The notes under the pieces: model-generated
The model's input: the letters and a program-made list of their open reading frames with translations, nothing else
Database searches by the model: none
What the model was told of the DNA's origin: nothing
Program-made: the position numbers and the translations under genes
Assembly: GCA_964485575.1 (NCBI GenBank)
Contig: CAZAJO010000007.1
Coordinates: 1 to 61,323 of the forward strand
Source: an uncultured Gammaproteobacteria bacterium
GTDB taxonomy: Bacteria; Patescibacteriota; Microgenomatia; Levybacterales; GWA1-39-11
Length of the DNA: 61,323 nt
Direction: 5' to 3'
Shown: one piece after another, positions 1 through 44,048 of the stretch
Position numbering within the stretch: position 1 is the first letter of the stretch
Layout of the letters: every line of letters begins with the position of its first letter

Positions 1-1287
<1,287 letters not shown>

Positions 1288-1443: not shown

Positions 1444-1515
1444 TGGGCGCACATGGGATCGAACCATGGACCTCGTTCTTATCAGGAACGCGCTCTACCA
1501 CTGAGCCATGCGCCC
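1444..1515 (-). tRNA. tRNA-Ile (anticodon GAU)
   Basis: Cloverleaf drawn by hand on the reverse complement. Acceptor GGGCGCA/TGCGCCC, D stem GCTC/GAGC, anticodon stem CGTTC/GAACG with loop CTGATAA, T arm CATGG-TTCGATC-CCATG. 72 nt, no encoded CCA. Confidence 0.9.
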
Positions 1516-10146: not shown

Positions 10147-11463
10147 TCAAGGCAAAGGGAAATTGCGCATTGCCTTTTTCACTTCAAGTGCAATTTTTTT
10201 TATATTTTTATTACCATCAACCTTCTTTCGGAATTCTTTGAAGAAGGGACTTCGTTCTTCTTTAACATCAGGAAGGGCATTTCCTTTTATCTCTTCAATT
10301 ACATCATTGATCCAATGAGCCAAAACTACCATATCTTTTTCGCGCATGCCCCTTGTTGTTGCAGCTGGCGTTCCGATTCTAATTCCAGATGGGTAGAAGG
10401 GTGGCATTTTGTCGTAAGGCACTGTATTTTTATTTGTGACAATTCCTGCCTGCTCGAGTGCATATGCTGCAAGTGCTCCATTTACCCCCTTATTCGAAAG
10501 ATCAACAACGAGTAAGTGGTTCTCGCTTCCTCCGGTTGTCAGAGAAAAACCAAGTCTTAGCAATTCATTCGCAAGTGCTTTCGAGTTGGTAACGATTTGC
10601 TTTGCGTATTTTTTAAACTCCGTAGTTTCTGCTTCGTGCAAAGCTACTGCAATTGCCGCTGTTTGGTTGTCATGAGGTCCTCCTTGAAGTCCTGGAAAGA
10701 CTGCCTTGTCGATTTTTTGTGCCAACTCGGGGTCTTTTTTTATTCCTTTTTCAGTCACCATCAGCATCGCTCCTCGGGGTCCTCGAAGTGACTTATGAGT
10801 TGTGGTCATGACAATATGAGCATAAGGAACTGGGGAAGGATGAGCTCCTCCAACAACAAGACCGGCGATGTGCGAAATGTCAGCTAGGAGATAACACCCA
10901 ACCTTATCAGCAATTTTCCCAAACCTTTCAAAATCAATGACCTGTGGATATGCAGTAAATCCGCAGACTATGATTTGTGGTTTTTCTTTGATGGCCAGTT
11001 TTTCAATGGCATCATAATCAAGTGTTCCATTCTTGGTGACAGGGAATGAAACAGTCTTAAAATATTTTCCAGAAAAAGAGACTGGAGACCCATGAGTTAG
11101 ATGTCCACCTGATGAGAGTGCAAGTCCCATAATTTTGTCTTTCAAAGGAGTCAGTAGTGCAAAGTAGACTGCAGTATTTGCCGGGCTTCCTGAATATGGT
11201 TGGACATTGACGTGTGGGACACCAAATAATTTTTTGGCACGCTCAATTGCCAAAAGCTCAATCCCGTCAGCATTTGCATTTCCCTGATAGTATCTTTTTT
11301 TTGAATACCCTTCGGAATATTTATTGGTAAGGACTGAGGATAGAGTTGCCCTGACTTCAAGAGATGCGTAATTTTCAGATGGGATGAGCGTTAGCGTATC
11401 TCTTTGTCTTTTGTCTTCTTTTTGGAGTAGGGCATATACATAAGGATCTTTTTGCGACAACAT
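10147..11463 (-). CDS. glyA: Serine hydroxymethyltransferase
   Basis: 438 aa. LIPSENY..., YSEGYS.KRYYQG, and the PLP-lysine region VMTTTHKSLRGPRGAM. Confidence 0.95.
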   Translation of the reverse strand: MLSQKDPYVYALLQKEDKRQRDTLTLIPSENYASLEVRATLSSVLTNKYSEGYSKKRYYQGNANADGIELLAIERAKKLFGVPHVNVQPYSGSPANTAVYFALLTPLKDKIMGLALSSGGHLTHGSPVSFSGKYFKTVSFPVTKNGTLDYDAIEKLAIKEKPQIIVCGFTAYPQVIDFERFGKIADKVGCYLLADISHIAGLVVGGAHPSPVPYAHIVMTTTHKSLRGPRGAMLMVTEKGIKKDPELAQKIDKAVFPGLQGGPHDNQTAAIAVALHEAETTEFKKYAKQIVTNSKALANELLRLGFSLTTGGSENHLLVVDLSNKGVNGALAAYALEQAGIVTNKNTVPYDKMPPFYPSGIRIGTPAATTRGMREKDMVVLAHWINDVIEEIKGNALPDVKEERSPFFKEFRKKVDGNKNIKKIALEVKKAMRNFPLP

Positions 11464-20218: not shown

Positions 20219-20581
20219 ATGATAAATTCTTATAAAGAATTAATTGTTTGGAAAAAAGCTATGGATTTATCCAGACTTATCTATAAAGAAACCAAACTAT
20301 TTCCTAAAGATGAAATGTATGGGTTAACATCACAAATTAGAAGAGCTTCTGTTTCAATCCCGTCTAATATAGCAGAAGGTTACGGGCGAAAATCGCGGAA
20401 AGAGTATCTTCAATTCTATTCAATTGCATATGGTTCGGTTCTAGAACTCGAAACTCAGATTATCCTCGCGCATGACTTCGGCTATATTTTAGATGGTCCA
20501 TTTACAGCAATCGAAAAACAAGCAGATGAAGTTTCAAGAATGCTACACTCCATGATCCTGAAACTAAACGCTAAACCCTAA
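20219..20581 (+). CDS. Four-helix-bundle protein (23S rRNA intervening-sequence protein family)
   Basis: 120 aa. ...LIVWKKAMDL...IYK.T..FPK.E.YGLTSQIRRA.VSIPSNIAEGYGR....E..QF..IA.GS..ELETQ is the classic family pattern. TATAAT at 20206-20211 lies 7 nt before the ATG. Confidence 0.85.
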   Translation: MINSYKELIVWKKAMDLSRLIYKETKLFPKDEMYGLTSQIRRASVSIPSNIAEGYGRKSRKEYLQFYSIAYGSVLELETQIILAHDFGYILDGPFTAIEKQADEVSRMLHSMILKLNAKP

Positions 20582-23820: not shown

Positions 23821-24429
23821 ATGAAAATTCCAAAAGCATTAGAGCGTGTTGTCGAAAGCTTTGAGCGGCTTCCCGGTATCGGTCCAAAGTCTGCTCAAAG
23901 ACTTGGGTTTTATTTACTCCATGTTCCTCAAAGTGATCTTGAAGACTTCGCGGATGCGCTAATCAACCTTAAAAAGAATACTAAAATGTGTGCGATATGC
24001 TTCAATATCGGCACAACAGAACTTTGTGATGTGTGTGCAGATCCAGAACGCGACGTATCAACGGTCTGCATTGTTGAGGATGCATTAGACGTTCTTGCAT
24101 TTGAGAGGTCTGATAAATTTAAAGGGGTCTATCATGTTTTGCATGGTGTTGTTGATCCGCTTAATTCTATCGGTCCTGACGACATATATATACCACAGTT
24201 AATGAATCGAATTAGGGAGAAGGAATCAAAAGTTAAGGAATTGATTATTGCAACAAATCCCACGATGGAAGGCGAGGCAACAGCAATGTATATAGCGAAA
24301 GGAATAAAGAATGAGGAATCAGGGATTAAGCTAAGTAGGATTGGAAGAGGCCTTCCAGTTGGTGCAGACATCGAATACGCTGATGAAGTGACATTGGGAC
24401 GTGCTTTGGAGGGAAGAAGCGAATACTAA
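23821..24429 (+). CDS. recR: Recombination protein RecR
   Basis: 202 aa with LPGIGPKSAQRL, a C4 zinc finger C.IC....C..C, and a Toprim region. Confidence 0.95.
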   Translation: MKIPKALERVVESFERLPGIGPKSAQRLGFYLLHVPQSDLEDFADALINLKKNTKMCAICFNIGTTELCDVCADPERDVSTVCIVEDALDVLAFERSDKFKGVYHVLHGVVDPLNSIGPDDIYIPQLMNRIREKESKVKELIIATNPTMEGEATAMYIAKGIKNEESGIKLSRIGRGLPVGADIEYADEVTLGRALEGRSEY

Positions 24430-25916
24430 GCAGCTTTTGCTAGATCATCAGTTGCAGATGCTTGACCAGGTTGTGCTGGAAATTGTGTAACAGAATCGCT
24501 AGCTTCAGGAGTAGGAGGGGTAGTTGGTAAACCTGCACTAAGAGAAGCAGTATCATCTACGATTCCAGCTTCAGTTGCAAGAGGTGTTGGTAGTACAGGG
24601 TTAGTTGGCGACATTGTTCCTGGAACAGCAACAGTAGGAGCTGTGGGTTCATTGTCAACATCATTTGCGACCGGAGCAGCATCATCCGCAATTTCACCAA
24701 CAGTTGACGTTTCAGAACCGGTTTCTATCGGAATATCATGACCAACTTCTGCTGTTTGATCAGATGGTTCAGCAAGTGCAGCAGCAGAGAATGGAGGTCT
24801 TTCAGCGGCGACTGCGGCTCCATCAGCCATAGCTTGACCAAGAGCGTCACCATCAACAGCAGCATCACCACTAACAACAGGTGCATCAGGATGTGAAGCT
24901 GTTCCATCGACTGACCAATCTGGTGGAGCCATAGTACCATCTGCAACTGCCCCGGGACCCGCATGAACTGCTTCAGCATTTGCATCTGCGGACTGACCAA
25001 CTGGTAATTCTTCTGCTGGAGCATCTTCAGTAGCAACCTCTTCAGTTCCTGGCTCTACGACTGGAGTTGTTTCAACTGAAGTTGCGGCGGTTTTACTTGG
25101 GTCTCCTAGTCCTTCCACTGGGATAGCAGCAGCAGGTGCTTCTGGCAAAGCGCTTACTTCCTCAGCTGGTGCAACGTCAGCACTTGGAGTAAAAACTGCT
25201 GGAGTCTCAGGTGCATCTGTCTCAAGGACAGCAGGATGCTCTCCCGCATTTTCCATATCTTGTGTCAAGGTAGTTGCAGCTGCTTCAACTACAGGTGCTG
25301 GGACAACTTCTGGTTGAGTTGTACCAAGTGAAGGAGCAGGGGTTGCTACAACTTCAGCAGAAGCAGGTGTTGATGCGACCATTCCGCCATTTTCTGGACT
25401 TGGAATTGAATTTTGGAATGGTACACCTGTTGCAGCACCAGCAGCCATGGCATCGGGAGTTGAGAGCCCAGCATAGTTATTTGCTGCAGGAGTACTAAAG
25501 TCTCTCGTTACTGCAGGACCATCGGCAGTTGCACCGTTAAGATTGGCAACTGGTGGAGTTTCAAGAGTGCCATTTGGTGTTGTAGTTAGATGGTCAGGGG
25601 TGGGTTGTGGAGTGACAGTTTCAGTAGTTACGCTTGCACGAAGACCCAATGCGCCCAAAATTTTATGAAATCTCCCTGGTTCTTGTGGTGCTGTTTTTTG
25701 TGCAGCAACTTCAGCGGCTTTAGTATTTGCAGTAGCGAGTATTTCAGGCATTTGAGGAGTACCCACAGCTTCAAGTCCAGTCAAAGGTTTTGCTTCAGGT
25801 AGAACGGCAGGGTGCTGTCCATCAGCTTCCATATCTTGAGTTAGTGTAGTTGCAGGAGCAGCATCAACCGTTGGTGCACTAGATGTAGTATTGGGGGATT
25901 CTGTCTGAATATCCAT
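24426..25916 (-). CDS. Highly acidic, low-complexity (A/P/T/E/D/V) protein, predicted disordered
   Basis: 496 aa with no TM or signal peptide. By eye it has ~11 K/R against several-fold more D/E. It contains an internal repeat TTLTQDME(A/N)(D/A)G(Q/E)HPAVL and one basic amphipathic patch, GRFHKILGALGLRAS. Confidence 0.6.
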   Translation of the reverse strand: MDIQTESPNTTSSAPTVDAAPATTLTQDMEADGQHPAVLPEAKPLTGLEAVGTPQMPEILATANTKAAEVAAQKTAPQEPGRFHKILGALGLRASVTTETVTPQPTPDHLTTTPNGTLETPPVANLNGATADGPAVTRDFSTPAANNYAGLSTPDAMAAGAATGVPFQNSIPSPENGGMVASTPASAEVVATPAPSLGTTQPEVVPAPVVEAAATTLTQDMENAGEHPAVLETDAPETPAVFTPSADVAPAEEVSALPEAPAAAIPVEGLGDPSKTAATSVETTPVVEPGTEEVATEDAPAEELPVGQSADANAEAVHAGPGAVADGTMAPPDWSVDGTASHPDAPVVSGDAAVDGDALGQAMADGAAVAAERPPFSAAALAEPSDQTAEVGHDIPIETGSETSTVGEIADDAAPVANDVDNEPTAPTVAVPGTMSPTNPVLPTPLATEAGIVDDTASLSAGLPTTPPTPEASDSVTQFPAQPGQASATDDLAKAA

Positions 25917-25950
25917 TACAAACTAAGTTACAGGAAAAGGGGTTGGATTG

Positions 25951-26697
25951 TCAAGAGTTTCCGCCCTTTTTCCATGGGGCGCTTTGTAATACAACTCCAT
26001 ACACATCTGTTGTTGGGTCAATATCAAGAAGTTCCAGTTCCTCCTCAGATGGATTACGGTCCTGAAATTGGACAAACGGAATATCAGTGATAATTGCAAA
26101 TGGAGTTTGGTTTGCTCCTTCACCCATGACAACAACTGCTCCAGCAGATATCCCATCCATCACACCAACTTGAGTCATTTTCAAAATTCTCCCAAAGATG
26201 TCAGGGGTTCCAACCTGATTGTTGAGTGCTAAAAAACCACTATGTGCTATTCCAATTCCAGTTATGCCATAGCGAAGTGGTGTGGTTTTACTATCAGTTA
26301 TAAGTACTCCAATATTTTTTAAATCATGTTTTTGTACAAGATGTTCCCTTATTCTGTTGGCGCTTTCTTGAGGATCTTTCGGCCATAGAACATAACCTTC
26401 TTTAGTATTAGATTCATCGATACCTGCATTGACTGCCAAGACATTATTTTTCAAAGTTACTGTTACGTGAAATGTATTTGTTTCTTTCGGAAGATAATAA
26501 TCTGCTTGAGATATGACAAGCTCTTCCTTTTCAATTGATCCAATAGGAACTGTGTTCCCTTCGCAAATAGCAATTATCTTACTTGTTACAACAAGAATAG
26601 AATTTTCTGAAAGAGTTGGTACATATTGGTCAATAATTTTTAAAATGTCTTTGTCTTCGCGAGTTATCTTGTGGGTTTTTACAGTTACAATATTCAT
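25951..26697 (-). CDS. CofE-like (F420-0:gamma-glutamyl ligase family) protein
   Basis: 248 aa. VVTSKIIAICEG, VNAGIDESN, GVLITDSKTTPLRYGITGIGIAHSG, and GR.L..T.V...D.I...A..VMGEG....P.AII match CofE family blocks. Confidence 0.75.
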   Translation of the reverse strand: MNIVTVKTHKITREDKDILKIIDQYVPTLSENSILVVTSKIIAICEGNTVPIGSIEKEELVISQADYYLPKETNTFHVTVTLKNNVLAVNAGIDESNTKEGYVLWPKDPQESANRIREHLVQKHDLKNIGVLITDSKTTPLRYGITGIGIAHSGFLALNNQVGTPDIFGRILKMTQVGVMDGISAGAVVVMGEGANQTPFAIITDIPFVQFQDRNPSEEELELLDIDPTTDVYGVVLQSAPWKKGGNS

Positions 26698-26709
26698 ACT
26701 CGGATTGTA

Positions 26710-27813
26710 TCAAAATCGTGGGACTAATATTTTTTTTGTATCGATAAGACCATACTTATCCAGTATCGTTGAAAGGATTGGGGATTTGGTAGCGTACAGT
26801 AATTTTCTCGGATATTTTTCGGCACGCAAATTCTCAATTTCATGGTATCCCAATAAATAGCACGCGTCTTTTGGAAATCCTCCTGGACGGGATGTGTCAG
26901 TCATGCCTCTTTTGACCCGGTATGTCATGATGAAAGCCCGTTGTGGATTTAGATTTTCAAGTAATAACTCATATATCTCAGAAAAACTTTTATGCAGATT
27001 TCTGACAGCCTTTATTCTGTAGTAGTACATCTCAAAAGCACTGGGAGTAATTTTTCGGGTAGTTATTTCATTATATATAGCAAGTCCCTCCCCATACAGA
27101 TTTTGGTTCCCATATTTCGTAAATTCAGCAAGGGCAGTATGGGAGTTTTTTGTGTTCTCAGTCTGAAGGACATGAGATTCAATCTCGTGTACGACAAGCC
27201 TATCAACATTGCACTCAAATCTTTTTATCTCGCTACCTATATTAATAAGATTGTATCCAACATTGATCATGTGGGGGGCAAAATCATTAACATTAATCTT
27301 AAAACTATCAATATTATATCTGGCTAGCGTTTTTTCAAATCTTTTCTTTATATCTTCTGCATTCTTTAATTCATGTTTTATATGTAATTTAAATTCCACA
27401 TTTGGAGTATTTGTGAGAAGTAAGTCAAGTCTATCTGTTCCCCAATCAAAAAGGTTATGAACATTCTCTGAGAATTCTTCCTGCCCAACAGATAATTTAG
27501 TTTTATAAAGTTCTATCTGATCGTCTAGAAATTCCAGAACGTGCTGCTTTAAATCCCCTGGAATTTCGAGTGCATCAACCCTTAATTTATAATCATCAAT
27601 TTCAGAAGCAAAATCGGGAAGATCTTGGGTTCTATATACGAATTGCGGATTATATGATGGGTCTGCAAAAAACTTTTCTTTTTCCTCGGCATAATTTAAC
27701 GGGGTGAGAGATGTGTTTCCAAGGCGCAGGGTTTTTTTAATTGTTATGATTTCCTTTGCTATAGTTTCTAATTTTTCAAGATCGGAAATAGAATGCTTAT
27801 TTGATGATTTCAT
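26710..27813 (-). CDS. DUF1704 / QEGLA-motif metallopeptidase-like protein (MATCAP-type carboxypeptidase family)
   Basis: 367 aa with an HExxxH-type site VVHEIESHVLQ and a downstream GEGLAIYNE (QEGLA-like) motif. Confidence 0.7.
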   Translation of the reverse strand: MKSSNKHSISDLEKLETIAKEIITIKKTLRLGNTSLTPLNYAEEKEKFFADPSYNPQFVYRTQDLPDFASEIDDYKLRVDALEIPGDLKQHVLEFLDDQIELYKTKLSVGQEEFSENVHNLFDWGTDRLDLLLTNTPNVEFKLHIKHELKNAEDIKKRFEKTLARYNIDSFKINVNDFAPHMINVGYNLINIGSEIKRFECNVDRLVVHEIESHVLQTENTKNSHTALAEFTKYGNQNLYGEGLAIYNEITTRKITPSAFEMYYYRIKAVRNLHKSFSEIYELLLENLNPQRAFIMTYRVKRGMTDTSRPGGFPKDACYLLGYHEIENLRAEKYPRKLLYATKSPILSTILDKYGLIDTKKILVPRF

Positions 27814-28163
27814 GAACTCCTATGTTATCATCGACAGCCTATATTGTCTAATTACCGCAGGACAGTTACGGAGCAAATTGTAGGCTGTAGTGGGCAGGTT
27901 GTAGGTTGTAACAAATTGAACAAAATCTAGTTTCGAAACAAGTGTTCAATATAAGTAGAAATTGCATAAACACATTTGCATTTTGGGTGATAAAAACCCG
28001 CAAAAAATAATTTTTTTGTTGATTTTAAGTTTTACATTTGAAGTTTTAAGTTTAGAAGCTTGCGGAAATATAATTACCGCAATGACAATTTTTTAAAGTA
28101 GATCATAATATGTCAGGGTTTGGGAGCTTGTATGCGTAGTGTTAGATGCATATAATTAGTAAC

Positions 28164-29726
28164 ATGCAGTTGAATAAATTCTCAGAGAATCTCATTCATC
28201 TATTTGAGAAAGCAAAAGAGGTTCCTATTGAGAGTGCCAACATAGTAAATCCATTAGTCAGTGAGCTCGCGTCGTGGTATGAGAAATTTAGGAACTCTAT
28301 AGAGTACCGGGATGAGGAAGTGATATTGCGGGCATCAATAGAAAGAATTCTGAAAAGACGACTTGCTCTCGGAGGTAGTGGTGCCACAGCTGCAAAGCCC
28401 CTTTTAAAAGAACTTGTATGGGCACGTTATTTTCCAGAGAGTCTATACACAGAAGAGACAATAAGCAGCATAGAAAAGATCATCAACTTTTATCTGCAGT
28501 TAAAAGTTGAAGTGGTAAAAAATCATATTCTGAAGGAAGGGGAGATGCGTCATCTCATGTTTCAACTGATGTCTTCAGATGTTGAGCAAACCCTTCATCC
28601 AAACAGAGTAGAAGAGGCGGTTGGTAATTATATCTTTTACGTTTTACAAAATAACATAACCATTGAAGAGGGCATGGAAGAGGAGAGGGATGTACAGTTA
28701 TTTATTGCCATAAGACGCGCGTATTCAAAAGACGATTTGGCTTTTCTGAGATTCAAATTATACACGCAGTACTTCGGTAAAATGAGCGTCCAAGAAGCTT
28801 CTTCCGTTTCTGAAAGATTTGCTGAAGCCCACCGCCAAATAGAGAGCCAGTTGACCCACCCGGCACGATTTAAAATACTCTCATATGTAAAAAGACAAAT
28901 ACCTCCTTTCCTTATCATCGAAGATATTTTTGCTAGTCACGAGAACATCCGGGAGCTGGCTCAAAACGAAGCAGAACTCAATGAAAGTGTGCTGGCTGCT
29001 TGTAAGAAAAAATACAAGACAATCTCTGAAAAAGTTAGACGTGCAATCATCAGAAGTGTCATATTTATTCTTCTTTCAAAAACTCTTATCGCTTTTGGTA
29101 TCGAAGGAACATATGAAAGGATATTTTTGGGACACATCCAGTGGATGACTTTAGCATTAAATGTTGCGATACCTACTTTATTTATGATAGTCGTTGGGTT
29201 TTCTATTCGTACTCCTGGGGAAAAGAACTCACGGTTAATTTTATCCCGAATACATTCGCTGCTTTTCGATGAGATGCCGAAAGTCGGACGTTCTATTGCA
29301 TTTCCGCTCCCAGATAGTAAAAAGCCAAGGTCAGTTATGGAGTGGATATTTGGTATCCTTTGGGTAGCAGCCTTTCTTTTGAGTTTTGGAGCTGTTTCAT
29401 TGGGACTTTCATTCCTTCACTTTAGCGCAGTAAGTCAAATGATATTCATATTCTTCTTGGCAATTGTCAGCTTTTTAGCATACAGAATCAATATAACTGC
29501 TCATGAGTATAGCGTTGAAAGTAGGCAAGGGATATTAACCCCAATTGTTGACTTTTTCTTCATGCCTATTGCACGAGTTGGGCAATATCTAACTGCTGGA
29601 ATTTCTCAAATAAATATTTTCTTGTTTATTTTAGACTTTATTATCGAAGCACCCTACAAAGGACTCGTTGCGTTCTTTGACCAATGGTTTTTCTTCTTAC
29701 ACTCCAAGAGGGAAGAGATAGGATAG
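28164..29726 (+). CDS. Large hypothetical protein with C-terminal multi-TM region
   Basis: The ORF runs 28146-29726. Start preferred at ATG 28164 because TATAAT (28151-28156) lies 7 nt upstream. There are about 5-6 TM helices in the last 230 aa. Confidence 0.6.
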   Translation: MQLNKFSENLIHLFEKAKEVPIESANIVNPLVSELASWYEKFRNSIEYRDEEVILRASIERILKRRLALGGSGATAAKPLLKELVWARYFPESLYTEETISSIEKIINFYLQLKVEVVKNHILKEGEMRHLMFQLMSSDVEQTLHPNRVEEAVGNYIFYVLQNNITIEEGMEEERDVQLFIAIRRAYSKDDLAFLRFKLYTQYFGKMSVQEASSVSERFAEAHRQIESQLTHPARFKILSYVKRQIPPFLIIEDIFASHENIRELAQNEAELNESVLAACKKKYKTISEKVRRAIIRSVIFILLSKTLIAFGIEGTYERIFLGHIQWMTLALNVAIPTLFMIVVGFSIRTPGEKNSRLILSRIHSLLFDEMPKVGRSIAFPLPDSKKPRSVMEWIFGILWVAAFLLSFGAVSLGLSFLHFSAVSQMIFIFFLAIVSFLAYRINITAHEYSVESRQGILTPIVDFFFMPIARVGQYLTAGISQINIFLFILDFIIEAPYKGLVAFFDQWFFFLHSKREEIG

Positions 29727-32722: not shown

Positions 32723-32880
32723 GTGATTTGTGTAGAATTATTTTGACACTATAAATCAAGAGGAGGAGTAGAGTATTGGCTCGTTGATCCCTCCAGCAAC
32801 CCTGAGGAAACTTGAAGGGTGCTACACCCAACCCTATTAAGGGAAGGATTAGTCCTAAGCTATACGCCAAGGAAAAATAA

Positions 32881-32927: not shown

Positions 32928-33158
32928 ATGTCAGAATTTGATACACATAGTCAAAAAGGTGCACCTTTTGCCGGTGCTGCAAGAGATGATGAATCCTTTG
33001 TTAGAAAACTTAATGATCTTTCAGTTTGTGGTTTTGTTGATGTCGATACTATTAACGAGCGACCTGATGGATCAATATTTTTTGCTGGTTGGATTGTTAG
33101 AGAAGGTCCAACAGAAATAGCCAAACCAGAAGGGTGGCAGTTTTTTGTAAAAAAGTAG
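32928..33158 (+). CDS. Hypothetical small protein (76 aa)
   Basis: Good SD (GGAAGGTGG), no recognised family. Confidence 0.45.
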   Translation: MSEFDTHSQKGAPFAGAARDDESFVRKLNDLSVCGFVDVDTINERPDGSIFFAGWIVREGPTEIAKPEGWQFFVKK

Positions 33159-33169
33159 TAAAATCCAAC

Positions 33170-33880
33170 ATGGGCAAGCTTTCAAACGTACGAAGTGATT
33201 TAAAAAAGGCAAGTTCCCCTGAGAAAGCAAAGAAAAGTGCATGGTTTTTTAAAACTGAAAAAGGGCAATATGGGTATGGTGACAAATTTATCGGCGTCAC
33301 AATGCCAGAGCAAAGAATAGTTGCAAAAAAATATCCTGATCTTACTTTAACCGATATTGAAAAACTTCTTGCATCACCAATTCATGAAGAGAGAAGTGTT
33401 TCGCTGATAATATTATGCAAACAATTTGAAAAGGCGGATGATAAAAGACGGGACGAAATATTTGAATTTTATGTTTCGCATTCAAAGTATATAAATAATT
33501 GGGATCTAGTTGATGGATCTGCGTCTAGAATAGTAGGTGAGTATTTACTCGATAAAAAAATTACGCTTCTTATCATGTATGCCAAATCAGGAGATCTGTG
33601 GGAGAAAAGAATCGCTATGATATCAACATTTGCATTCATTTACCATGGAAGAACGAAAGAAACATATTTAATTGCCGACCTCTTGTTAGATGAAAAACAT
33701 GATCTTCTACAAAAAGCAGTTGGTTGGATGCTGCGTGAGACTGGAAAGAGAGTCTCTGAGAAAGAACTAAAGAGTTATCTAAAAAAGAACTACAAAAAAA
33801 TGGGGAGGACAGCACTGAGATATTCTATAGAACATTTTCCCAAAGAAGAAAGAGACAAATACCTCAAGGGTCAGATCTAA
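33170..33880 (+). CDS. DNA alkylation repair protein (AlkD-like HEAT-repeat family)
   Basis: Start at the internal ATG 33170. ...A...FFKT..G.YG.GD.F.GV.MP..R..AK.......NWDLVD......G....... is the family pattern. Confidence 0.8.
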   Translation: MGKLSNVRSDLKKASSPEKAKKSAWFFKTEKGQYGYGDKFIGVTMPEQRIVAKKYPDLTLTDIEKLLASPIHEERSVSLIILCKQFEKADDKRRDEIFEFYVSHSKYINNWDLVDGSASRIVGEYLLDKKITLLIMYAKSGDLWEKRIAMISTFAFIYHGRTKETYLIADLLLDEKHDLLQKAVGWMLRETGKRVSEKELKSYLKKNYKKMGRTALRYSIEHFPKEERDKYLKGQI

Positions 33881-41384: not shown

Positions 41385-44048
41385 TTGACTCAGCTTATTA
41401 CAGCCCAAGATGGGGAAGCCGTCAAGAGCGGGGCAGCAGCCCCGACGACGTACGTCTATCCGTTCCGCGAAGGCAACGCAACCATGCGAGACCTTCTCGG
41501 CGGCAAAGGAACTGGCCTGGCCGAGATGACCAATTCAGGCGCGCCTGTTCCTCCCGGCTTCACCATCACCACCGAAGCTTGCAATGCGTTTTCCGCGACC
41601 GACCAATTCCCTGATGGGATGATGGATCAAGTTATGGTTGCGCTGGCCGAGGTGGAGAGGCAGACCGGAAAGCGGTTCGGTGATCCCACCAACCCGCTTC
41701 TGGTATCCGTCCGTTCCGGCGCGAAGTTCTCGATGCCGGGCATGATGGACACCGTCCTCAACCTGGGTCTCAACACCCAGACAAGCGAGGGCATGGCGCG
41801 GTTGACCAACAACCCGCGCTTTGCTGCGGATGCGTATCGCCGCTTCGTTCAGCTCTATGGCAAGATCGTTCTTGATGTGGACGGAGAACTCTTCGAGCAC
41901 GTCATGAACGAAGCGAAGGGTGGTGATCGTCAAGACACCGACCTGAGCACCAAAGAACTGATTGCGATCGTCGAGAGATTCAAGGCGATCGTTCTCGAAG
42001 TAACCGGCGTAGCATTTCCAGAAGATCCTCACAAGCAGTTGGTAGAAGCGATCGCCGCGGTCTTCCGTTCCTGGAATGGCCGACGCGCACGCGACTACCG
42101 CCGTCTCAACAAGATCTCGGACCTGCTCGGCACCGCGGTCAATGTCCAGTCGATGGTATTCGGCAACATGGGCAATGATTCCGCAACGGGGGTTGCGTTC
42201 TCACGCAACCCTTCGACCGGCGAACCAGGCCTCTACGGAGAATACCTGGTAAACGCTCAGGGTGAGGACGTTGTAGCGGGTGTACGCACCCCACGTCCCA
42301 TCCAAGAAATGGAGCGTGATATGCCGGAGGTGTATCGCCAGTTCTGTGACATCGCCAGCGGCCTGGAAAGGCACTACCGCGACGTTCAGGACATGGAGTT
42401 CACCGTCGAACGCGGCAGACTTTACATGCTCCAAACCCGTACCGGCAAGCGCACGGGCAAAGCGGCGATTCGTATTGCCGTGGACCTCGTCCGCGAAGAA
42501 GTGATCGATCGGGTAACGGCAGTCCAACGTGTTGAGCCTCAACAGCTCGACCAACTCCTGCACCCGATGATCGTTCCTGCTGCCAAGCAAAAAGCCGGCT
42601 TTCTGACCAAGGGACTTCCCGCCTCACCCGGCGCAGCGTCGGGGAAGGTAGTGTTTGATCCCGACGAAGCAGTAGAGCTGGCTAAGGTCGGTCCGGTGAT
42701 CCTGGTGCGGACCGAAACTGCACCCGAGGATTTCCATGGAATGGTTGCTGCCCAAGCGGTGCTTACCGCACGCGGGGGCATGACCAGCCACGCTGCCGTC
42801 GTGGCACGCGGCATGGGCAAACCCTGCGTCGCTGGCGCGGGCGCACTGAGCATCAATTACGGTGTCCAGTCGTTCAGCGTCAACGGCACAATCATCAATA
42901 AAGGTGACTTCATCACTCTCGACGGTTCAACCGGCGAGGTGTTCGTGGGTCATCTCCCAACACAAGACCCGGTGCTGGACGAGTACTACCACACCCTGAT
43001 GGGCTGGGCAGACGAGTTCCGCACGATGGGTGTCAGGACCAATGCAGACACGCCAGAAGACGCACTCAAAGCGCGTGAGTTTGGCGCCGAAGGCATTGGT
43101 CTTTGTCGCACCGAGCACATGTTCTTCCAAGGCGACCGGATCGACGCTGTCCGCGAGATGATCCTGGCAGAGACGCTCGAAGAGCGCGAAGCAGCGCTCG
43201 CCAAAATCGAACCCTACCAGCGAGAGGATTTCGTCGGAATCTTCCGCGCTATGGACGGGTTCCCAGTGACCATCCGGACTCTCGACCCGCCTTTGCACGA
43301 GTTCCTCCCTCATGAAGAGAAGGACATTCGTGAACTGGCCGAAAAGATGGGCGTGGACTTCGCTTTGCTCATGGGCAAGGTGCATAGTCTGCGTGAAGCA
43401 AACCCAATGCTTGGCACGCGTGGTTGCCGGCTTGGTATCTTGTTCCCCGAGATCACTGAAATGCAGACGCGCGCGATCTTCGAAGCGGCCGTGCAGGTAA
43501 GTGGTGAAGGGATCGAGGTTCATCCCGAGGTGATGATCCCCCTGGTCAGCACCGTTCAAGAGTTTCGGTCCCAAAAGACGATCGTCAGGCTCGTAGCTGA
43601 GGAAGTTGGTTTTACCGACCACCTCATAGGCACGATGATCGAGATCCCGCGAGCAGCCCTGGTTGCCGACGAGATCGCCGAAGAGGCTGAGTTCTTCTCT
43701 TTCGGCACCAATGACCTGACGCAGATGGCGATGGGCATCTCTCGTGACGATGCAGGTCGGTTCATTCCGCACTACATCGAAGCGAAGATCTTCGCCGACG
43801 ACCCCTTCCAGGTCCTCGACCAGAAGGGCGTCGGTCAATTGGTCGAGATCGGTACCGAGCGTGGTCGCAAGACCCGCCCGAACCTCAAAGTGGGAGTCTG
43901 CGGTGAGCATGGCGGTGAGCCATCCTCCGTGCAGTTCTTCGCACGCACTGGTCTTGACTACGTCTCCTGTTCGCCGTATCGCGTGCCTATCGCGCGGCTG
44001 GCAGCAGCACACGCGGCACTCAAGATGCAGCAAGAGGCCGCCGTTTAG
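41385..44048 (+). CDS. ppdK: Pyruvate, phosphate dikinase
   Basis: 887 aa. The N-terminus is MRDLLGGKGTGLAEM, the phospho-His motif is GGMTSHAAVVARGMGKPCV, and the PEP-utilising C-domain is GLCRTEHMF...FFSFGTNDLTQ. TTG start after AGAAGGAA. Confidence 0.93.
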   Translation: MTQLITAQDGEAVKSGAAAPTTYVYPFREGNATMRDLLGGKGTGLAEMTNSGAPVPPGFTITTEACNAFSATDQFPDGMMDQVMVALAEVERQTGKRFGDPTNPLLVSVRSGAKFSMPGMMDTVLNLGLNTQTSEGMARLTNNPRFAADAYRRFVQLYGKIVLDVDGELFEHVMNEAKGGDRQDTDLSTKELIAIVERFKAIVLEVTGVAFPEDPHKQLVEAIAAVFRSWNGRRARDYRRLNKISDLLGTAVNVQSMVFGNMGNDSATGVAFSRNPSTGEPGLYGEYLVNAQGEDVVAGVRTPRPIQEMERDMPEVYRQFCDIASGLERHYRDVQDMEFTVERGRLYMLQTRTGKRTGKAAIRIAVDLVREEVIDRVTAVQRVEPQQLDQLLHPMIVPAAKQKAGFLTKGLPASPGAASGKVVFDPDEAVELAKVGPVILVRTETAPEDFHGMVAAQAVLTARGGMTSHAAVVARGMGKPCVAGAGALSINYGVQSFSVNGTIINKGDFITLDGSTGEVFVGHLPTQDPVLDEYYHTLMGWADEFRTMGVRTNADTPEDALKAREFGAEGIGLCRTEHMFFQGDRIDAVREMILAETLEEREAALAKIEPYQREDFVGIFRAMDGFPVTIRTLDPPLHEFLPHEEKDIRELAEKMGVDFALLMGKVHSLREANPMLGTRGCRLGILFPEITEMQTRAIFEAAVQVSGEGIEVHPEVMIPLVSTVQEFRSQKTIVRLVAEEVGFTDHLIGTMIEIPRAALVADEIAEEAEFFSFGTNDLTQMAMGISRDDAGRFIPHYIEAKIFADDPFQVLDQKGVGQLVEIGTERGRKTRPNLKVGVCGEHGGEPSSVQFFARTGLDYVSCSPYRVPIARLAAAHAALKMQQEAAV

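Follow-up and report, generated by a model that had tools for sequence, protein, structure and literature searches.

A MATCAP-like carboxypeptidase gene and a FolC2-like glutamate ligase gene that are probably neighbours by inherited gene order in Levybacteria

The human MATCAP enzyme KIAA0895L combines an HExxxH motif with a third ligand from an EEG motif and is inactive as the E281A variant; MATCAP/TMCP enzymes act on acidic tubulin C-terminal tails and take off polyglutamylation (PMC10499314). In CofE of Archaeoglobus fulgidus, the F420 chromophore is held by F92, G153-C155 and R234 of the dimer partner (PMC10861534). Chlamydia, which possesses neither folC nor other cof genes, encodes a COG1478/CofE homologue clustered with folate genes, and CT611 of Chlamydia trachomatis ('FolC2') complements E. 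coli mutated in folC (De Crécy-Lagard et al., 2007, PMC1971073). Because of the CT611 experiment, a CofE-family gene in an organism without F420 synthesis already has a known explanation. We analyzed a 61,323-nucleotide (nt) stretch of DNA from the Candidate Phyla Radiation (CPR), contig CAZAJO010000007.1 of assembly GCA_964485575.1 (hereafter the window), in which a MATCAP-like carboxypeptidase gene, a CofE-like gamma-glutamyl ligase gene and a gene for an acidic protein follow one another. A first-pass annotation of this DNA had read ligase and peptidase as writer and eraser of a peptide-tail modification, with the acidic protein as a candidate substrate or partner, and had overlooked FolC2-type folate glutamylation as the known explanation for CofE homologues without F420 (PMC1971073). 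We find that the three genes are real and that their families were correctly identified; they are probably ordinary members of known families, brought together by inherited gene order, and the ligase is most likely of the FolC2 type. The locus comprises the following features.

26710-27813, minus strand: MATCAP/DUF1704-family metallocarboxypeptidase-like protein, 367 amino acids (aa), PF08014 match
25951-26697, minus strand: CofE-fold GTP-type gamma-glutamyl ligase of the FolC2-like (TIGR04132-like) subfamily, 248 aa, PF01996 match
24426-25916, minus strand: lineage-specific acidic A/P/T-rich protein, probably disordered, 496 aa, no match in Pfam, NCBIfam or PADLOC
27814-28145, no strand assigned: divergent intergenic region of 332 nt with promoter-like sites toward the three-gene unit and the upstream 526-aa gene
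28146-29726, plus strand: 526-aa membrane protein of no known family (no Pfam or NCBIfam match), divergent syntenic neighbour of the MATCAP-like gene
23821-24429, plus strand: recR, the convergent right-hand edge of the syntenic block (coordinates of the open reading frame, ORF; RecR Pfam domains were found on the same gene in locus L126)

The coordinates of the three minus-strand ORFs and the gaps between them, 12 nt between the MATCAP-like and CofE-like genes and 34 nt between the CofE-like and acidic genes, are as first annotated, and the 3' end of recR overlaps the acidic ORF by 4 nt. All motifs quoted at that stage are present (VVHEIESHV, GEGLAIYNE, VNAGIDESN, ITDSKTTPLRYG, VMGEG and the C-terminal DDLAKAA), as are two copies of the internal repeat TTLTQDME..G.HPAVL in the acidic protein. 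No terminator-like site was found on the minus strand between the three genes. Promoter-like sites on the same strand upstream of 27813 lie at 27850-27822 (with a TG), 28049-28022 and 28096-28067. A single three-gene transcript, or operon, is plausible in the window, where co-transcription of the three genes is probable. A role in anti-phage defence was considered and rejected, PADLOC having returned no match for the three proteins or the product of the upstream gene.

Pfam searches place the 26710-27813 product in PF08014 (MATCAP; 91.5 bits, E = 6.7e-26, cutoff 27, residues 47-332) and the 25951-26697 product in PF01996 (F420_ligase; 120.8 bits, E = 7.6e-35, cutoff 25). Both assignments are far beyond chance and bear out the original DUF1704 and CofE calls, including the intact HExxxH/EGLA site. 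The PF08014 family is small, with 98 matches versus more than 5,000 for the CofE-like query. The metal site of the MATCAP-like protein, as predicted from its sequence, consists of the HExxxH motif H209-E210-IES-H214 and of E242 in GEGLA; H209, E210, H214 and E242 are invariant across 26 relatives. An alignment with human KIAA0895L (7z5g/7z6s) matches HEIESH to HEIGTH, GEGLA to EEGLA and YRVKRGMTDTSRPGGFPKD to VRAKRGQTDTSLPGCFSKD, and also spans the RVKRGxTDTSxPGxFxKD block. The AlphaFold2 (AF2) model has a predicted local distance difference test (pLDDT) score of 92.4. Human MATCAP is its sole strong match in a Foldseek search of the PDB (7z5g/7z6s; E ~3e-9, probability 1.00, TM-score 0.52-0.60, ~350 columns), the next matches being M32 carboxypeptidases with E above 0.03. 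The proteobacterial QEGLA-motif equivalog model TIGR02421 gives 90.1 bits, under its cutoff of 338.65. Ratios of nonsynonymous to synonymous substitution rates (dN/dS) are 0.03-0.06 for the MATCAP-like gene and within the 0.03-0.08 range of the two enzymes for the ligase gene; synonymous divergence (dS) is saturated, making these values rough, and they indicate strong purifying selection on both enzymes. With this active site and the gene contexts described below, and by analogy with human MATCAP/TMCP, the protein would be an active gluzincin-type carboxypeptidase that trims C-terminal residues of acidic tails.

For the CofE-like protein, the best NCBIfam model is TIGR04132, matched from end to end (258.1 bits, protein residues 1-244 to profile positions 1-241 of 241) at a score below the cutoff of 350. 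This model is a 'hypothetical equivalog' named 'putative folate metabolism gamma-glutamate ligase', of FolC2 type. TIGR01916 (cofE) reaches 132.2 bits, about half of the TIGR04132 score and under its cutoff of 180.65, and NF009809 and NF009810 give 126.7 bits (cutoff 274) and 99.4 bits (cutoff 304), respectively. Ten other CPR relatives tested score 260-300 bits on TIGR04132, all under the cutoff. Whether their context is DHFR, ThyA or MATCAP, the ligases give 258-300 bits with TIGR04132 and 119-132 bits with TIGR01916, and since these ranges are alike they constitute one subfamily. The TIGR04132 name is already applied to several close relatives by the Joint Genome Institute (JGI); some database records call relatives 'coenzyme F420-0:L-glutamate ligase'. 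The AF2 model of the ligase (pLDDT 87.3) has a TM-score of 0.76 to A. fulgidus CofE (7uld), and GIDESN, TDS and MGEG are invariant across 102 relatives. The residues that contact the chromophore in CofE appear to have different counterparts, as judged by sequence alignment only: F92 corresponds to T79 in a variable column, G153-C155 to the nearly invariant but different T138-T139-P140, and R234 to a C-terminal stretch with strong conservation within the CPR subfamily and no alignment to CofE. These differences would fit a different head group. By analogy with CT611, the protein is most likely a folate-tail glutamate ligase of FolC2 type.

To place the ligase in its genomic contexts, we scanned metagenomes from the ligase gene and obtained 80 loci with relatives at 47-69% identity. 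A MATCAP-like gene is present in two of them (L056 and L078), or in one of 40 when counting loci of at least 6 kb. At least one of DHFR-like, VUT, dcd, thyA and tmk genes lies within 8 kb in 25 of the 80 loci (Pfam-confirmed). Genes that recur near the ligase gene encode a RibD_C/DHFR_1 reductase, a Vut_1 vitamin-uptake transporter, dCTP deaminase (dcd), thymidylate synthase (thyA) and thymidylate kinase (tmk). In six loci the DHFR-like gene immediately precedes the ligase gene on the same strand; dcd follows the ligase gene by 10-58 nt in seven loci and thyA by 18 nt in one. Three loci (L057, L074, L079) contain a string of Vut_1 transporter, RibD_C/DHFR-like reductase and CofE-like ligase genes, which looks like a salvage module that takes up, reduces and glutamylates folate. 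Three others (L108, L112, L114) contain a CofE-like, dcd, tmk, dcd, thyA string, that is, a thymidylate (dTMP) module. CofE-like genes of sister lineages (61-65% identity) occupy another block with RNase Y, CofE, glycerate kinase, transketolase and Pterin_4a, and no MATCAP-like gene is present within 7 kb of them (contigs of 34-525 kb); these contigs are also not among the longest contigs listed for MATCAP matches. Pterin_4a, encoding a pterin-4a-carbinolamine dehydratase, lies ~3-5 kb downstream of the CofE-like gene in four of four sister-lineage contigs (L124:12452-12775, L130:12588-12977, L131:10935-11264, L132:12338-12670). L132 also has an IMPDH gene directly upstream.

Two genes of the window bear on folate use by the organism itself.

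10147-11463, minus strand: serine hydroxymethyltransferase (SHMT), PF00464 at 489 bits; also called in L128
3819-4388, plus strand: dCTP deaminase (dcd), PF22769 DCD at 158.5 bits

Because SHMT, and also dcd, are encoded in the window, the organism uses tetrahydrofolate. In other CPR lineages, genes of the dcd family often come immediately after the CofE-like gene, and the dcd of the window is 74% identical to the one that follows the CofE-like gene in L094. A fold, catalytic motifs, subfamily placement and gene contexts of this kind point to folate as the probable substrate. Through the CofE fold and its metal/nucleotide chemistry, the ligase would extend a reduced folate or pteroate-type cofactor with gamma-linked glutamates; glutamylation would retain salvaged folate in the cell and render it usable by folate enzymes, among them the SHMT whose gene lies 14.5 kb away.

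The MATCAP-like gene presents a different picture. A genome scan from this gene gave 40 loci, 27 of them with at least 3 kb on both sides, and these 27 divide into 12 with CofE, 11 with ATP-grasp genes and four with neither. A CofE-like gene stands beside the MATCAP-like gene only in loci of one syntenic block, whose order in Levybacteria is FKBP, 526-aa or CAP-domain protein, MATCAP-like, variable inserts, CofE-like, low-complexity ORF, RecR, Frr, RseP, Tsf and RpsB. In 13 loci the 526-aa gene adjoins the MATCAP-like gene, and others have the CAP-domain gene in its place; recR is kept beside the CofE-like gene in MATCAP-associated loci whose contigs reach that far. The homologues carry Levybacteria/Levyibacteriota or Patescibacteria labels. 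Many records of metagenome-assembled genomes (MAGs) are titled 'uncultured Gammaproteobacteria bacterium' (L001, L002, L004, L005, L007, L009-L012, L014-L016, L018, L019, L021, L022, L026, L027); they show the Levybacteria gene order and housekeeping proteins 60-97% identical to those of Levybacteria loci, and the titles are evidently wrong.

None of the 23 distant MATCAP loci (L018-L040; Levy-, Roizman-, Curtiss- and Dojkabacteria and 'Saccharibacteria'-labelled MAGs) contains a CofE-like gene within 10 kb. Most of them have ATP-grasp ligase genes beside the MATCAP-like gene instead (L018-L020, L023, L029-L040), so that the usual pairing of DUF1704 with ATP-grasp ligases, mentioned in the first-pass annotation, does hold inside the CPR. 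In L020 and L023, ATPgrasp_ST (210-215 bits) is encoded immediately upstream and in the same direction, RimK-type genes are also found, and the ATP-grasp genes of L029-L040 are convergent and downstream. In a neighbour-joining tree, midpoint-rooted and without support values, the CofE-associated MATCAP-like proteins form a single clade nested among ATP-grasp-associated branches, and the CofE tree shows the same restriction of MATCAP-associated ligases; since a single clade is found in both trees, the adjacency is best explained by one evolutionary event. The DUF1704/PF01996 neighbourhood census thus reveals no general co-occurrence, and the proposed writer and eraser fail as a pair at two of 80 ligase loci and none of 23 distant MATCAP loci, their co-located cases amounting to one clade and one syntenic block. 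No fusion of PF08014 with PF01996 or an ATP-grasp domain is present among the matches listed.

The junction itself is often interrupted. In most co-located loci an inserted gene separates the MATCAP and CofE genes, and in nine of them (L004, L005, L007, L008, L009, L011, L015, L078, L121) it encodes an adenylosuccinate-lyase-like protein (Lyase_1 + ADSL_C, 437-512 aa), on the minus strand in most and on the plus strand in L008 and L009. Coordinates of this gene include L004:11079-12551, L005:11084-12622, L007:11092-12405, L008:12697-14190 and L009:11115-12587; in the window it is absent from the slot, and no homologue was found anywhere in the 61 kb. Other loci have a tandem DUF1704 paralog or a 258-aa gene in this position, and L016 keeps a MATCAP-like gene in the slot without CofE. 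The MATCAP/CofE junction is not protected within the Levybacteria clade.

Several genes around the MATCAP-like gene deserve description. A ~258-aa family (clusters c24/c43, related at E 8e-11) is encoded directly downstream of it (L014:11101-11883, L017:11109-11885, L027:11103-11879, L028:845-1627, L056:7082-7864, L078:244-1029, L020:5834-6598, L023:6241-7017), and its gene is found both in loci with CofE and in loci with ATP-grasp genes, as well as in L028, where both are missing. Judged by this distribution, it partners the peptidase more consistently than CofE does. G108, R124, H162-G163, K179 and P186 are invariant in this family, and Pfam (E up to 1) and PDB profile searches with the c24/c43 protein gave nothing credible. 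In L029-L040 (for example L032:11100-16300; Dojkabacteria or 'Saccharibacteria' labels), four ATP-grasp genes in a conserved cluster come after the MATCAP-like gene on the other strand; they encode a RimK-like protein of ~315 aa, ATP-grasp proteins of ~565 and ~325 aa and an ATPgrasp_ST protein of ~490 aa, the last of which carries a C-terminal Zn_protease/aspartyl-protease-like domain. This cluster is a candidate ligase/peptidase system much richer than that of the window. A longer, divergent DUF1704 paralog (501-542 aa) occurs in tandem with the MATCAP-like gene in three loci (L008:11143-12648, L016:11203-12822, L121:3841-5469), and the L016 copy retains HEIDGH, EGLA and the YRVMRGHTDTS block.

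The acidic protein contains 10 K/R (~11 had been counted initially) and 71 D/E, has an isoelectric point of ~4 and consists of 19% Ala, 13% Pro and 12% Thr. No hydrophobic segment is present, the maximum 19-residue Kyte-Doolittle mean being 0.8, and Pfam, NCBIfam and PADLOC searches gave no match. Nine relatives besides itself share 51-65% identity. The possibility that the ORF is a non-coding artefact of a GC-rich stretch was rejected, given that the frame is kept across ~100 gap columns versus close relatives, that dN/dS is 0.21-0.26, below 0.3, and that conserved islands exist. In the Levybacteria block a low-complexity ORF of 198-774 aa usually comes directly after the CofE-like gene; in L014, L017 and L027 the slot holds only short ORFs of 93-158 aa. 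In two loci a small gene separates the CofE-like gene from the low-complexity ORF; it is of the 23S_rRNA_IVP type, a four-helix-bundle kind of small gene that is otherwise scattered (window 20219-20581, plus strand; L008:15011-15358; L010:11894-12259). Outside the Levybacteria lineage, the CofE-like gene is not followed by an ORF of the acidic low-complexity type. The C-termini of the low-complexity ORFs differ (LAKAA, EKPAA, TDGQS, PVTA, LATS, PIAA). The initial description of composition and lack of transmembrane segments therefore stands, whereas the candidate substrate role does not: with variable C-termini, variable length and short ORFs alone in three loci, a conserved substrate was rejected. 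The protein appears to be the product of a real but weakly constrained, fast-evolving and lineage-restricted gene and is probably disordered; nothing discernible marks it as a substrate of a C-terminal tail enzyme or ties it to either enzyme.

Taken together, the three genes are probably functionally heterogeneous neighbours in a conserved Levybacteria block, adjacent by the inherited order of one lineage. The conserved partners of the MATCAP-like protein would be ATP-grasp (RimK/ATPgrasp_ST) ligases and the 258-aa protein rather than CofE, with no ATP-grasp partner nearby in the Levybacteria lineage, and the acidic protein would be a fast-evolving, lineage-restricted disordered protein encoded after the CofE-like gene.

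A number of observations weigh against this interpretation. In the Levybacteria clade the distance between the two genes stays at 0-3.2 kb even as MATCAP identity falls to ~40%, the 12-nt gap in the window makes their co-expression likely, and the clade has also lost the ATP-grasp neighbour, which is what a partner swap would look like. On the ligase side, no folate gene adjoins the ligase gene in the window, the nearest being SHMT, and membership in the FolC2-type subfamily is approximate given a model that is only a hypothetical equivalog and CPR members that all stay under its cutoff. The gene content considered was that of the window and the contig neighbourhoods. Within this scope, the 61 kb window showed no ATP-grasp gene by tblastn (E above 0.2) or among the Pfam calls of its ORFs, and cofC/cofD/cofG/cofH, fbiA/fbiC or other F420 genes were not found among the Pfam calls for window ORFs.

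One alternative leaves the two enzymes independent of each other and changes only the substrate of the ligase to a carboxylate that is neither folate nor F420, such as another pterin or a CPR-specific cofactor. The scores of all CPR members below the TIGR04132 cutoff, the positions contacting the head group that appear to differ from CofE, the folate/dTMP neighbours in only about a third of loci, and the VUT-family transporter and Pterin_4a genes among the neighbours are all compatible with it. However, DHFR-like, thyA, dcd and tmk neighbours point specifically to the thymidylate/folate cycle and the FolC2 precedent is experimental, and we consider such a substrate unlikely.

A real functional link between the MATCAP-like and CofE-like proteins, via a protein tail or via folate tails, is improbable even with its variants taken in total. 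What probability it retains is due to the two enzymes having stayed close, the ATP-grasp neighbour having gone and the genes being probably co-transcribed in the window. In its general form, the MATCAP-like protein would have lost its ancestral ATP-grasp partner and would now work with the CofE-fold ligase on gamma-glutamyl tails of folates or of a protein C-terminus, a course of events to which we assign a low probability.

If the tails are those of folate, the MATCAP-like protein could trim the poly-gamma-glutamyl tail built by the FolC2-like ligase and so set its length, or deconjugate salvaged folylpolyglutamates, in a role likened to that of gamma-glutamyl hydrolase or carboxypeptidase G. 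The removal of polyglutamylation from acidic C-terminal tails by MATCAP/TMCP enzymes (PMC10499314), the co-oriented genes 12 nt apart and the folate use indicated by SHMT would agree with this. Yet 78 of 80 FolC2-like loci have no MATCAP-like gene, sister lineages have none near the CofE-like gene, other CPR MATCAP-like proteins pair with ATP-grasp ligases, and the documented MATCAP activity concerns tubulin C-terminal tails and polyglutamylation, activity on a cofactor tail not being met there (PMC10499314). We therefore see little chance that the peptidase acts on folate tails.

The write/erase pair of the first-pass annotation, in which the CofE-like ligase replaces ATP-grasp and attaches an amino acid (glutamate or another) to the C-terminus of a peptide or protein, the MATCAP-like enzyme removes it and the acidic protein is substrate or partner, is very improbable as well. 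It draws on the 12-nt gap with likely co-transcription, on strong purifying selection on both enzymes, and on a CofE-associated MATCAP clade lacking the ATP-grasp neighbours of other CPR lineages, with no such gene in the window. However, the adjacency arose once, in a block that conserves unrelated housekeeping neighbours just as well, and the junction has repeatedly been split by inserts, including an opposite-strand lyase gene. The ligase is indistinguishable at the subfamily level from many CPR copies with folate/dTMP neighbours and without MATCAP, the acidic protein has no conserved C-terminus and its slot holds only 93-158 aa ORFs in some loci, and a limited literature search found no CofE-family enzyme acting on a peptide or protein. 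A genuine F420-0:L-glutamate ligase in an organism that makes or salvages F420 is barely credible and was rejected, in agreement with the first-pass annotation: PF01996 membership, the CofE fold and the database names of some relatives speak for it, against low equivalog scores (TIGR01916 at 132 versus a cutoff of 180.65, half of the TIGR04132 score), the lack of cofC/D/G/H or any other F420 family in the window, and chromophore-contact positions that appear not to be conserved.

The rest of the window has some further features. A 16S rRNA gene (1-1285, plus strand) is cut at the 5' end of the window and is followed by a tRNA gene (1444-1515, minus strand) and protein-coding genes, not by a 23S rRNA gene, which is why the rRNA genes appear unlinked. 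An S-adenosylmethionine (SAM) riboswitch at 32750-32854 (plus strand; 48.6 bits, just above gathering) comes after an MFS transporter gene and precedes a 76-aa ORF and a DNA_alkylation repair gene (33134-33880), the latter a gene not usually expected behind an S-box leader. The pyruvate phosphate dikinase gene (41385-44048, plus strand) lies in a stretch with a GC fraction of ~0.59 versus ~0.39 in the rest of the window and may have been recently acquired horizontally.

The main outcome of this analysis is a correction of annotation, as CPR proteins named 'coenzyme F420-0:L-glutamate ligase' would be better read as FolC2-type folate ligases. FolC2-type ligase, VUT transporter and DHFR-like reductase may form a compact module for folate salvage and retention in reduced CPR genomes. 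CPR MATCAP homologues keep a partnership with ATP-grasp ligases that would be the prokaryotic counterpart of the tubulin ligase/carboxypeptidase cycle, and the four-ATP-grasp loci of Dojkabacteria are probably a better place than the window for studying it. Should the functional link nevertheless be true, the enzymes that write glutamylation onto C-termini or cofactors would gain a new fold, and a CofE-fold enzyme would for the first time be coupled to a MATCAP-type eraser.

Compared with known systems, the MATCAP-like protein resembles the human tubulin C-terminal carboxypeptidases MATCAP/TMCP1 (KIAA0895L) and TMCP2 (KIAA0895) in its PF08014 domain, in HExxxH and the EEG/EGLA glutamate, in its fold and in the conserved R-x-K-R-G-x-T-D-T-S block. 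It differs in that identity is ~20%, that it is a bacterial protein in a setting without tubulin, and that it does not have the N-terminal extension of the longer human 7z6s chain (471 aa, aligned from residue 142). With bacterial DUF1704 'QEGLA' proteins (TIGR02421), which are coupled with RimK-related ATP-grasp ligases, it has superfamily and motif in common, but its score lies under the cutoff of that model and the window contains no ATP-grasp gene. The ligase shares its fold and the motifs GIDxSN, TD(S/T) and MGEG for metal, nucleotide and glutamate with CofE and FbiB's N-terminal domain (A. fulgidus 2phn/7uld); unlike these, it stays under the CofE equivalog cutoff, appears to differ at deazaflavin-contact positions and has no F420 pathway context. 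FolC2 (CT611; COG1478; TIGR04132) is the closer likeness: in both cases a CofE-fold protein occurs in an organism without F420 genes (within the scope of the window here), TIGR04132 is the best-scoring, full-length model, and members of the subfamily cluster with folate and thymidylate genes. In contrast to FolC2, the ligase scores 258 bits against a cutoff of 350, its host belongs to the CPR and is not an intracellular pathogen, and the de novo folate genes folP and folK are not seen near it, so that its role would be the salvage and retention of folate rather than the completion of its synthesis.

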